This document shows, in pieces, positions 3,334 through 4,040 of a stretch of DNA of 40,397 bases (positions are counted from its first letter, which is position 1; each line of letters begins with the position of its first letter). Under the pieces are notes generated by a model. That model did no database searches. It was not told where the DNA came from and was given only the letters and a program-made list of their open reading frames with translations. The stretch lies in the IMG/VR virus record IMGVR_UViG_2541047757_000012; one strand, 5' to 3'. Both the position numbers and the translations under genes were made by a program. The DNA is from a virus. Lineage: Duplodnaviria; Heunggongvirae; Uroviricota; Caudoviricetes.

Positions 3334-3507
3334 CTAACTATCTTTCTTGGGAAAAGTTGAAGGCTTGTCGTGATAGCTTTCCGTCATAATTTCGATATCC
3401 CCGAAAGGTACTCTAGCCATAATCTCTTGCTCATAGTTATCTAGGAAAGAGACCTCAGGCTCACTTGGTTTAGGTTGTGGTTCATTTTGGTCTTCTGGAC
3501 AGGACAT
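3334..3507 (-). CDS. Hypothetical small acidic protein, 57 aa (absent from ORF track)
   Basis: ATG at 3507 abuts the stop of the membrane-protein gene at 3510; translation MSCPEDQNEPQPKPSEPEVSFLDNYEQEIMARVPFGDIEIMTESYHDKPSTFPKKDS; stop at 3334-3336; terminator follows. Confidence 0.4.
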   Translation of the reverse strand: MSCPEDQNEPQPKPSEPEVSFLDNYEQEIMARVPFGDIEIMTESYHDKPSTFPKKDS

Positions 3508-3509
3508 AT

Positions 3510-4040
3510 TCAAACCTTACTTATTAACATGCACGTTACAGAAATAATAAAAAATACAAATGACATAACCATCCATCGAAACAACTCATTTACAAACGCT
3601 GATTTTTCTTTATGGATTTTCTCGATTCTATCAATAGCCCTACCATACATTATCAAATGAAATCTGACTGTGTCATCTCTACTACCCCTCAGAAGAAATT
3701 CATGTTGTTCAGGTGTTCGATGCACAGGCATTTTGGGAATATTTCTAAGTTCCCAACATTTCCATAAATAATAAAAACAAAAAACCAAACATACAAAACA
3801 TGAACATAGACACAATAGAGACAATCTTGCGGATAGACTAGTCTTTAACTGTTGTCCCAGCTCAAAGGACCCAAAAACGGCTAATAATGCAGAAATCTCA
3901 ACACCAAGCACAGCAAGAAGAAAATTAGCTTTGTCCTCTAACCGCCTGTATGTTGTCTTAACTTCTTCATACCTGTCTCTCGAGTACGACAAAATCGTAT
4001 CTACTTCAAGGCCAACAGCCTCATTCCTTTGATTGCACAT
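3510..4040 (-). CDS. Hypothetical membrane protein with three predicted TM helices (moron)
   Basis: 176-aa ORF with ATG start; hydrophobic segments LLAVLGVEISALLAVFGSF, LLCLCSCFVCLVFCFYYLW, MVMSFVFFIISVTCMLISKV; the 3.3-4.05 kb region is visibly AT-rich compared with flanking tail genes. Confidence 0.6.
   Translation of the reverse strand: MCNQRNEAVGLEVDTILSYSRDRYEEVKTTYRRLEDKANFLLAVLGVEISALLAVFGSFELGQQLKTSLSARLSLLCLCSCFVCLVFCFYYLWKCWELRNIPKMPVHRTPEQHEFLLRGSRDDTVRFHLIMYGRAIDRIEKIHKEKSAFVNELFRWMVMSFVFFIISVTCMLISKV

Follow-up and report, generated by a model that had tools for sequence, protein, structure and literature searches.

A membrane-protein and micropeptide gene pair exchanged as cargo within the tail operon of SEN34-like prophages: a candidate exclusion or abortive-infection module

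The DNA analysed here, hereafter the window, is a 40,397-nt stretch of a tailed virus of the Caudoviricetes (IMG/VR record IMGVR_UViG_2541047757_000012). Between the baseplate hub and membrane-puncturing spike genes of its tail operon lie the genes for a secreted 117-aa protein, a 176-aa membrane protein and a 57-aa micropeptide (Table 1). The original prediction, made from the letters and their open reading frames, had singled out the last two as an AT-rich block followed by a hairpin and T-run, and all of these features were recovered where it had placed them. A sliding-window GC calculation bears out the compositional part of the claim: the GC content of 3334-4040 is 0.375 as compared with a window mean of 0.49 (z = -2.75), and the block falls among the 0.28% of 707-nt tiles of the window that are as GC-poor. 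Neither gene is annotated by NCBI's pipeline in the RefSeq genomes examined. Both belong to PHROGs families, to which no function is assigned in that resource, and the membrane protein additionally bears a weak likeness to the Pycsar effector PycTM (see below); the earlier statement that the pair could not be placed in a described family thus has to be dropped.

Table 1. Positions of the genes and sequence elements in and around the hub-spike slot of the window.
Feature	Position	Strand	Basis and remarks
Membrane-puncturing spike gene, conserved right flank	2520..3272	-	Pfam spike N-terminal domain, E 2.4e-44, plus Apex motif
GC-rich hairpin and T-run, intrinsic-terminator-like	3289..3316	-	Terminator scan; marks the 3' edge of the slot
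57-aa micropeptide	3334..3507	-	ATG 3507, stop 3334-3336; phrog_18231, E 2e-6
176-aa membrane protein	3510..4040	-	ORF; phrog_18554, E 5e-60
Sigma-70-like hexamers TTGTAA-16-TACAAT	4041..4068	-	Consensus match only; ends 1 nt before ATG
117-aa protein, 5' edge of the slot	4047..4400	-	phrog_3443, E 1e-46
Baseplate hub gene, conserved left flank	4400..5467	-	Weak Pfam E217_GP41; annotated as hub in SEN34 and YP3

The region between hub and spike was surveyed in the 73 related IMG/VR contigs that contain both genes. The slot ranges from 352 to 1941 nt in length across these contigs, has a mean GC content of 0.41 as against 0.55 and 0.52 in its two flanks, and houses at least 11 unrelated gene sets, with the 176-aa/57-aa pair present in five of the 73. 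Other cargo includes a YafO toxin pair and membrane proteins with DUF4282 or DUF2335, and a second, divergent clade of the 176-aa membrane-protein family is also found in the slot. The 117-aa protein possesses a signal peptide (…GFAFA/ANPGG) and two conserved cysteines, and the start of its gene overlaps the hub stop; with homologues in SEN34, YP3 and 689R2 and in 62 of the 73 contigs, it is part of the backbone and lies outside the variable cargo. Hub and spike had been thought to be normally contiguous, which they almost never are in SEN34-like phages, where a secreted protein of 111-117 aa and variable cargo separate them. Close relatives whose flanks are 95-97% identical carry unrelated genes in between, and the pair is absent from the isolated phages SEN34, YP3 and vB_EcoM-689R2. 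The 176-aa/57-aa pair is hence horizontally exchanged cargo in a recombination hotspot of the SEN34-like prophage tail operon, a hotspot for which a literature search returned no description.

The location of the pair between the hub and spike genes could also be read as that of a phage-specific component of the virion or of baseplate assembly. This reading is extremely improbable, because relatives with 95-100% identical hub and spike have unrelated genes in the same place, the block shows a break in composition, and its larger product is an integral membrane protein. Comparison with relatives lacking the insert, which had been proposed as a check, came out as swapped slot contents with an accompanying composition break, in agreement with the earlier impression that neither product is recognisable as a virion protein.

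The transcriptional setting of the pair calls for a revision of the original prediction. The hairpin downstream of the pair (AAACCCGCCACCAGGCGGGTTT followed by the T-run, at 3295-3316 on the minus strand) has a minimum free energy of -15.7 kcal/mol (z = -3.4 relative to shuffled sequences). In 61 of the 73 contigs, whatever the cargo, it is found no more than 90 nt upstream of the spike gene, and SEN34 and 689R2 combine the same hairpin with other genes. It is thus an element of the phage backbone as opposed to the pair's own terminator. Further, the hub, 117-aa, 176-aa and 57-aa genes form a chain in which successive members overlap or are separated by only 2-6 nt (6 nt between the 117-aa and 176-aa genes), and no separate promoter is evident, so the description of the pair as a terminator-bounded unit is not supported either. 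The sigma-70-like hexamer pair is badly placed for the start codon of the 176-aa gene, and a promoter scan gave four sites where shuffled sequences led us to expect 4.1, i.e., no excess. With no room for a private promoter, expression of the pair may be restricted to a late stage of the phage's own lytic cycle.

The AF2 model of the 176-aa protein (pLDDT 80) contains helices at residues 10-58, 69-97, 110-118 and 121-175, and together with hydropathy it points to hydrophobic helices at about 39-58, 71-96 and 154-175. The protein begins with a cytoplasmic N-terminal helix bearing an invariant RLEDK motif, which leads into a two-helix membrane hairpin; this is followed by a 55-aa cytoplasmic helical loop and by a third hydrophobic helix at the C-terminus. 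Its predicted topology is positive-inside and places the C-terminus outside the cell. The features that had been proposed for this protein are accordingly upheld, the three hydrophobic helices by structure modelling and hydropathy and the cytoplasmic N-terminus by topology prediction. The gene has evolved under purifying selection (dN/dS 0.105). Neither the 176-aa nor the 57-aa protein has a significant match in Pfam or NCBIfam, a tblastn search of 50,697 phage records with the 176-aa protein gave no matches, and a fold search of the PDB returned only non-specific matches to long helices, the best with an E-value of 0.29. Matches to DUF3611 and DUF6796 were set aside as sub-threshold hydrophobic noise. 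A second ORF with three transmembrane helices, at 21676-22272 of the window, proved to be unrelated to the family (hhalign probability 0.2%).

A small protein with three hydrophobic helices, encoded without a separate promoter in a chain with late structural genes, might also serve a late function of the phage itself, as an accessory holin- or antiholin-like protein, a lysis-timing device or a late membrane-remodelling factor. However, the phage has a complete lysis cassette with a lambda-family holin, a GH24 endolysin and an Rz-like protein some 17 kb from the pair, the protein matches no holin family in Pfam, PHROGs or NCBIfam, relatives that lack the pair have been isolated as viable phages, and homologues exist outside phages, in defence islands. 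In sum, a phage-intrinsic role of this kind appears improbable.

The 57-aa ORF, which had been noted as starting at an ATG adjoining the upstream stop, begins 2 nt after the TGA of the 176-aa gene. Its product combines an N-terminal half that is disordered and acidic with a conserved core, VPFGDIEIMTESY, which in the family as a whole takes the form of a P-x-L-x-[VI]-x-x-E-[SG]-[YFL] motif. Between E. coli and Salmonella its dN/dS is 0.18 in frame, as compared with 1.4-1.8 in the other two frames. This purifying selection, together with its retention beside the membrane gene down to 43% identity, indicates that it is a real, conserved gene. Its acidity, which was part of the original description, is seen in this copy (net charge -8) but is not a trait of the family, in which the charge of the partner ranges from -12 to +5. 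Since the acidity varies in this way while the motif and the pairing are kept, an interpretation of the peptide as a DNA mimic or an anti-restriction protein was rejected. The peptide has no match in PADLOC-DB v2.

The two genes are obligately paired. The peptide gene lies 2-10 nt downstream of the membrane gene in every locus, including all 14 viral contigs, among which identity falls as low as 43%, as well as Salmonella and metagenome loci, and the pair is retained even in degraded Salmonella prophages. An exhaustive profile search contributed 37 representatives of distant homologues, and the family alignment has 39 members. Homologues with about 20% identity occur in Pseudomonas, Acinetobacter, Thauera, Serratia and Pantoea, always with a P-x-L-x-V-x-x-E-S-Y motif, and the two clades compared by hhalign (A1 and A6) align with a probability of 99.1%. 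The motif resides on an overlapping small ORF in Pseudomonas, Oceanobacter, Thauera, Acinetobacter and E. coli, whereas in Pantoea and others it is fused to the membrane protein as a C-terminal tail; partner peptides of the family measure 28-58 aa. The presence of a peptide beside every membrane gene, with the same motif in distant members, supports the earlier proposal that the two form a functional pair, and their natural fusion provides strong evidence that they physically interact. The fused Pantoea homologue has an AT-rich spacer upstream and is accompanied by a terminator. In an AF2 model of this fusion the linker is disordered and the motif forms a helix of moderate confidence, which gives no docking information. 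As the C-terminus of the membrane protein is predicted to be outside, the fused tail would be periplasmic, whereas the free peptide, lacking a signal peptide, would be expected in the cytoplasm; the two predicted locations conflict.

The pairing of a membrane protein with a peptide of this size recalls SpoIISA/SpoIISB of Bacillus subtilis, in which a three-helix membrane toxin is followed immediately downstream by a neutralising hydrophilic peptide of about 56 aa, so that gene order and size class agree with those of the present pair. This parallel, the translationally coupled layout of the two genes, the presence of the YafO toxin in another cargo set of the same slot and the persistence of the pair in degraded prophages would all suit a selfish toxin-antitoxin or addiction cassette that serves to keep the prophage or the hotspot stable, with no specific action against phages. 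Against this, the order of the genes is toxin first and peptide second, and natural fusions are hard to square with an antitoxin that is degraded separately. Moreover, no sequence relation to SpoIISA is apparent: in a comparison of the 39-member profile with PDB sequences it scored a non-significant E-value of 0.25 over 40 residues, and nothing else was significant. SpoIISA also differs in that its three membrane helices precede its cytoplasmic domain, and it comes from a different phylum with no phage context. We therefore consider an addiction cassette pure and simple to be unlikely. Toxin-antitoxin and abortive-infection roles are, in any case, not mutually exclusive.

The genomic neighbourhoods of the family are informative in this regard. 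Its members adjoin DarT, PDC-S73 (Mrr + STAND), DRT (Drt6/Drt4), DUF4062 and bSEFIR genes, and others occupy further prophage accessory slots, including ones in filamentous-phage and siphophage contexts. These surroundings fit an exclusion, abortive-infection or toxin-antitoxin-like role. The occurrence of the family in both prophage accessory slots and defence islands suggests that the pair is most likely an exclusion or abortive-infection module as opposed to a part of the virus particle. Thus, of the original reading of the block as a moron with a role in exclusion, abortive infection or a toxin-antitoxin-like pair, the functional part is in keeping with the cargo status, the pairing and the homologue contexts, whereas the notion of a terminator-bounded unit is not supported.

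A more specific version of the exclusion idea is that the membrane protein, aided by the peptide, blocks DNA injection by related contractile-tail phages without killing the cell, in the manner of the HK97 gp15 moron. As with HK97 gp15 (cited in PMC11364771; PMC3594210), an inner-membrane protein is encoded within a tail operon; it is, further, encoded near the membrane-puncturing spike and the secreted 117-aa protein, and its allelic diversity of 52%, set against flanks that are 97% identical, fits an arms race with related phages. Like the pair, the HK97 gp15 moron is an AT-rich accessory gene for an inner-membrane protein among the tail genes of a temperate coliphage, followed by a terminator. 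However, gp15 is encoded by a stand-alone gene that has its own promoter and lacks a peptide partner, no sequence relation to it was found, and the terminator at the present locus belongs to the backbone, with no promoter evident. Additionally, homologues of the pair turn up in defence islands on chromosomes as well as in filamentous-phage and siphophage settings that have nothing to do with this tail type, and the micropeptide partner and the PycTM-like similarity are better suited to a regulated toxin. Exclusion at the step of DNA entry is, on this balance, rather unlikely.

The only consistent family match of the membrane protein is to PycTM, a putative relationship that is weak and confined to the N-terminal half. 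Three PADLOC PycTM models match the window protein with E-values of 2.6e-4, 6.1e-4 and 1.5e-3, over residues 24-104 only, and the models match 11 of the 39 family members, with a best E-value of 2e-5. PycTM is a cNMP-activated, membrane-disrupting effector of abortive infection (PMC11224242, PMC12489823). In hmmscan searches the Pfam family PF18967 was not matched by the window protein at E<=10, by the 39 members at E<=0.01, or by P0002 and P0059, which bear a precomputed PF18967 tag, at E<=1; a literature search for DUF5706 / PF18967 found nothing. Of the profile searches suggested for both proteins, that with PADLOC yielded the weak match to PycTM and that with Pfam nothing significant. Apart from PycTM for the membrane protein, PADLOC-DB v2 gave no consistent match, and the distant homologues P0074 and P0065 had no match in it at all; judged by these profile comparisons, the pair does not belong to any of the listed defence systems.

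The PycTM likeness raises the prospect of an orphan Pycsar-type effector, or an anti-Pycsar decoy, that binds cCMP or cUMP from a host cyclase encoded elsewhere and would thereby either serve as an additional effector or mop up the signal. The PycTM profile matches, weak but consistent, and the length of the protein, close to the 154-165 residues of the PycTM models, would agree with this. However, a cyclase is adjacent in none of the more than 30 contexts inspected, among them the window, the 14 viral contigs, and loci from Salmonella, E. coli, Pantoea, Pseudomonas, Acinetobacter and Thauera, nor does the annotation of the closest complete prophage include one. As its conserved partner the protein has a micropeptide, not a cyclase, and PF18967 is not reached. 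An orphan effector or decoy is accordingly quite improbable.

Our preferred interpretation, to which we would give an even chance, is that the pair comprises a cyclase-independent, PycTM-like membrane effector under micropeptide control, acting in abortive infection or exclusion. The 176-aa protein would be an effector of the inner membrane with a layout like that of the small Pycsar effector PycTM, and once activated it would damage the membrane or depolarise it. The 57-aa peptide would be its dedicated regulator, most likely keeping it inactive in an antitoxin- or gate-like fashion. Infection by another phage might then remove or override the peptide and release the effector, with abortive infection or exclusion of competing phages as the outcome, to the benefit of the lysogen and its prophage. 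A bolder version of this interpretation, which we put forward only tentatively and regard as possible and not probable, holds that the pair is an undescribed, widespread two-component anti-phage system, in which a PycTM-like effector dispenses with nucleotide signalling and is gated by a free or tethered micropeptide, possibly via insertion of the third helix, and that the slot is an unrecognised defence hotspot of the Enterobacteriaceae.

Comparison with established systems places this interpretation in context. Pycsar PycTM (2021; PADLOC PDLC02363-5; PF18967) resembles the 176-aa protein in its length of about 160-180 aa and in its N-terminal cytoplasmic helix followed by membrane helices, and members of the present family likewise reside in defence islands; unlike PycTM, they have a peptide partner and no adjacent PycC cyclase in the members examined. 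In lambda RexA/RexB and the SieB-Esc system of P22 and lambda, prophage-encoded two-component abortive infection involves a collapse of membrane potential brought about by a membrane protein, with the second product exerting control. However, RexA is a sensor of 279 aa and Esc arises by internal translation, neither system has sequence similarity to the pair, and both are expressed from the immunity region as opposed to a late operon. As for the slot, the P2/P4 hotspots (Rousset et al. 2022) and lambdoid morons similarly present a fixed site with conserved flanks and many alternative AT-rich sets, in which toxin-like and membrane proteins are swapped by flank recombination, whereas the present site lies between the hub/117-aa gene and the spike of SEN34-like (Brunovirus-like) myoviruses.

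Since both genes go unannotated by NCBI's pipeline, modules of this type are invisible to protein-based surveys. The slot itself constitutes a new cargo hotspot in the baseplate operon of prophages common in E. coli and Salmonella, and, with at least 10 other uncharacterised sets in it, it offers a source of candidate defence genes. The existence of the partner peptide in both free and fused states poses a testable question about how micropeptides control membrane proteins. If the proposed function is confirmed, a very compact (~0.7 kb) design of membrane effector and micropeptide would be added to the catalogue of phage defences, and, if the interpretation is true, a PycTM-type effector fold would be able to function without a cyclase.

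The two open reading frames lying between the baseplate hub (4400..5467) and spike (2520..3272) genes, which encode a 176-aa membrane protein and a 57-aa peptide, occupy a region with a GC content of 0.32-0.38 over 3300-4000 as against 0.50-0.57 in the flanks. The 707-nt block itself has a GC content of 0.375 (z = -2.75), a value matched or undercut by just 0.28% of tiles of that size across the window. The ORFs, hairpin and AT-rich block described in the original prediction were all recovered at the locus and are non-random by GC tiling and shuffling. Both ORFs are genes under purifying selection: between E. 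coli and its Salmonella ortholog (90% identity for the membrane protein, 68% for the peptide) dN/dS is 0.105 for the 176-aa gene; the 57-aa gene scores 0.18 when read in frame, as opposed to 1.4-1.8 in the two other frames. Orthologous pairs are also found on several metagenome contigs (about 50% and 43-61% identity) and on one viral contig (43%), the small ORF being placed 2-10 nt downstream of the membrane gene in every case. The two proteins match phrog_18554 (E 5e-60) and phrog_18231 (E 2e-6), respectively, with the PHROGs function label "unknown", and the RefSeq (PGAP) annotation has no CDS across the 0.7-kb block in E. coli ECONIH2 and AVS0790, where it is 99.7-100% identical to the window (loci L015 19993-20768; L115 3870-4645).

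Features of the hub-to-spike interval in the window and of alternative cargo at the same position in related loci (prefix L, locus compared)
Feature	Coordinates	Strand	Remarks
117-aa protein gene	4047-4400	-	phrog_3443 (PHROGs function: unknown)
176-aa ORF	3510-4040	-	ORF reading
57-aa ORF	ATG 3507, end 3334	-	starts two bases past TGA of 176-aa ORF
9-bp GC-rich hairpin + T-run	3295-3316	-	terminator scan; 23 nt before spike start
YafO-family toxin after 192-aa protein	L097:3042-3458 and L077:2462-3040		Pfam E 3e-15
DUF4282 79-aa membrane protein	L048:3202-3441		11 loci
266-aa + 142-aa proteins	L044:2286-3086 with L062:3008-3436		commonest set, 30 loci
DUF2335 membrane protein	L028:2871-3443

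The window is a mosaic prophage, combining structural genes assigned to the SEN34-like (Brunovirus-like) myovirus type with an early region of lambdoid, Rac-like character (recE, recT, kil, ralR, hokD). In the closest genome the prophage is integrated near yebY (window compared with L015 and L115), and ECONIH2 has the same structural module with a wholly different early region. Within the early region of the window, AT-rich stretches (GC <= 0.40) at 32600-33700 and 38200-39300 hold small uncharacterized ORFs, e.g., one of 107 aa at 33143-33466(+), and a DUF1187 protein is encoded at 37973-38233. In an ECONIH2 prophage with the identical pair (L016), SIR2-family and TIR-domain genes (7581-9083 and 11289-12050) flank the phage DNA polymerase gene and a DUF6338 gene lies close by, an arrangement that may represent Thoeris-like defence cargo in split form.

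Hub and spike DNA of the window is 83-96% identical to that of vB_EcoM-689R2, Yersinia phage YP3 and SEN34, but the DNA in between differs: in each of these phages the gene for a homolog of the 117-aa protein precedes an unrelated one of 170, 266 or 138 aa. A search with the spike protein retrieved 80 IMG/VR contigs, of which 73 have both hub and spike; in these the interval ranges from 352 to 1941 nt, carries at least 11 unrelated gene sets and has a mean GC of 0.41 against 0.55 for the hub and 0.52 for the spike, AT-richness thus being the rule. The 142-aa protein of the commonest set shows an R-x6-H motif, HEPN-like by eye only, with no Pfam match. The interval looks like an unexplored hotspot for defence or toxin genes, in which the pair (5 of the 73) emerges from these comparisons as exchangeable cargo. 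Further, pair alleles just 52% identical are flanked by a hub and a spike gene that match those of the window at 97% identity, which indicates replacement through recombination in the flanks. The block is rare, being present in 8 of 5,426 complete E. coli genomes and 14 IMG/VR contigs and absent from all isolated phages searched. Salmonella often carries it, in degraded SopE-carrying prophages among others. That the pair forms part of the virion is, against this background, very improbable. In Salmonella enterica (L005 and L007; genes at 5647-7522 and 11938-12531) the pair is kept in a degraded prophage adjoining pncB; this prophage no longer has the genes that preceded the 117-aa homolog but keeps those from spike to tail fibre along with a SopE effector gene; the protein is on record for more than a thousand assemblies.

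The hairpin had been taken for the insert's own terminator. Its folding energy is -15.7 kcal/mol (z = -3.4 relative to shuffled sequence). The same CCCGCC-loop-GGCGGG-T-run hairpin occurs within 90 nt of the spike start in 61 of the 73 contigs irrespective of cargo, and hence belongs to the backbone, at the 3' edge of the interval. The genes upstream form a tight chain, the GTG start of the 117-aa gene overlapping the hub stop, with 6 nt to the 176-aa gene and 2 nt to the 57-aa gene. No private promoter for the pair is evident, the sites from the promoter scan being no more numerous than in shuffled sequence. A gene for a Q-family antiterminator is present in the related ECONIH2 prophage; plausibly, late transcription reads through the hairpin, at which any lysogenic transcription of the cargo would end. 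A late or lysis function intrinsic to the phage is improbable. The 117-aa protein itself bears two conserved cysteines and a signal peptide (AFA/ANPGG). It is kept in 62 of the 73 contigs, the others having unrelated proteins of 158 aa or 244 aa in its place, and may act in the periplasm as a factor for exclusion or conversion, or else serve in assembly.

The AlphaFold2 model of the 176-aa protein (pLDDT 80) has helices at 10-58, 69-97, 110-118 and 121-175. Hydropathy and K/R counts over 39 family members reveal a common plan: a charged N-terminal segment of ~40 residues (8 K/R) is followed by a hydrophobic helix of 20 residues, a loop of 12 (0.9 K/R), a second hydrophobic helix of 26, a helical loop of 55 (8.9 K/R) and, at the C-terminus, a third hydrophobic helix of 21. 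This plan implies a predicted N-in, C-out topology. Near-invariant are an RLEDK motif ahead of the first membrane helix, a tryptophan in the second and a lysine in the helical loop. Searches with the membrane protein returned no significant match in Pfam or NCBIfam and none, by fold or sequence, in the PDB. The sole PADLOC matches are three models of PycTM, the small membrane effector of Pycsar defence (E 2.6e-4 to 1.5e-3, residues 24-104), which is also the sole recurrent match over the 39-member family (11 members, best E 2e-5); the Pfam PycTM family PF18967 was never reached, even with sequences bearing a precomputed PF18967 tag. Homology to PycTM is plausible but unproven. A second AT-rich (GC 0.40) ORF of 198 aa in the window, 21676-22272(-), directly upstream of a lambda-family holin gene (20987-21337), has a similar layout: an N-terminal domain leads into a pair of hydrophobic helices, and after a loop comes a further hydrophobic helix at the C-terminus. 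The protein has no Pfam family and is not homologous to the 176-aa protein (hhalign probability 0.2%).

A profile search run exhaustively over 1.84 billion representatives recovered only 37 proteins at E<0.001, whose loci were inspected with those of further relatives. The phage clade aligns with a Serratia/E. coli/Pantoea clade at 99.1% hhalign probability (E 5.5e-19, 160 columns). In Pseudomonas, Oceanobacter, Marinobacterium, Thauera, Acinetobacter and E. coli an ORF of 28-58 aa overlaps or abuts the membrane-gene stop, and the core of the window peptide (VPFGDIEIMTESY) recurs in these distant small ORFs (e.g., APPLVVATESY, APELVSIMEGY, APSLVLVQESI, GPRLQVSQNSY). Acidity, noted earlier for the window peptide, is a lineage trait, as net charge spans -12 to +5 across the family; what is conserved is the motif. 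Elsewhere in the family (Pantoea, Acinetobacter sp. A47 and several metagenomic clusters) the motif ends a C-terminal tail of 35-80 residues following the third hydrophobic helix (P0025, P0027, P0032, P0033, P0047, P0064-66; L110 3986-4594), by which the peptide is identified as fused to the membrane protein. The residues right after helix 3 resemble an N-terminal Met-Phe-x-Lys (three representative fused sequences, read by eye), so that fusion looks to have occurred through stop-codon loss. Across the family, sequence comparison shows the membrane protein and micropeptide as an obligate, sometimes fused, pair. A selfish membrane toxin-antitoxin like SpoIISA/B would share such a two-component build, and is a rather unlikely reading. 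The predicted topology would make the fused tail periplasmic, at odds with free peptides that have no export signal; either the third helix does not always span the membrane, which would suggest a latent-insertion mechanism, or the topology prediction is wrong. The AF2 model of a natural fusion was uninformative.

The neighborhoods of homologs are, from gene content, typical of defence and conflict genes. Chromosomal members adjoin DarT, PDC-S73 (Mrr nuclease and STAND NTPase), Drt6/Drt4 reverse transcriptase, a DUF4062 protein and bSEFIR. In other prophages this same interval, from the 117-aa-type gene to the spike, is taken by a divergent clade from E. coli (P0074; identity about 20%) that brings a 56-aa partner and a hairpin of its own. 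The Pantoea fusion sits in an accessory part of a siphophage tail operon and has an AT-rich spacer upstream and a terminator; phage head genes stand on either side of one Acinetobacter member, and another member adjoins a Zot-encoding filamentous prophage. No nucleotide cyclase was found adjacent to family members in the inspected loci, and the annotation of the closest complete prophage lists none. The pair thereby differs from PycTM, despite the similar build, in being cyclase-free, and an orphan Pycsar effector or decoy answering a cyclase encoded elsewhere is quite improbable.

The best explanation, to which we give roughly even credence, is a micropeptide-gated, PycTM-like membrane effector: the membrane protein would damage membranes, the micropeptide would hold it in check or gate it, and the outcome would be abortive infection or exclusion of competing phages. 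Exclusion at DNA entry without killing, as by HK97 gp15, is an unlikely alternative model for the same membrane protein. As a membrane effector carried as prophage cargo in a phage hotspot, the gated effector is of a familiar kind; the pair, its micropeptide motif, the cyclase-free PycTM-like build and the hotspot are absent from Pfam, NCBIfam, PADLOC v2, the PHROGs function labels and the PDB, and no description was found in the literature searched. The pair is a well-supported candidate for a predicted defence module, and one that is cheap to test.
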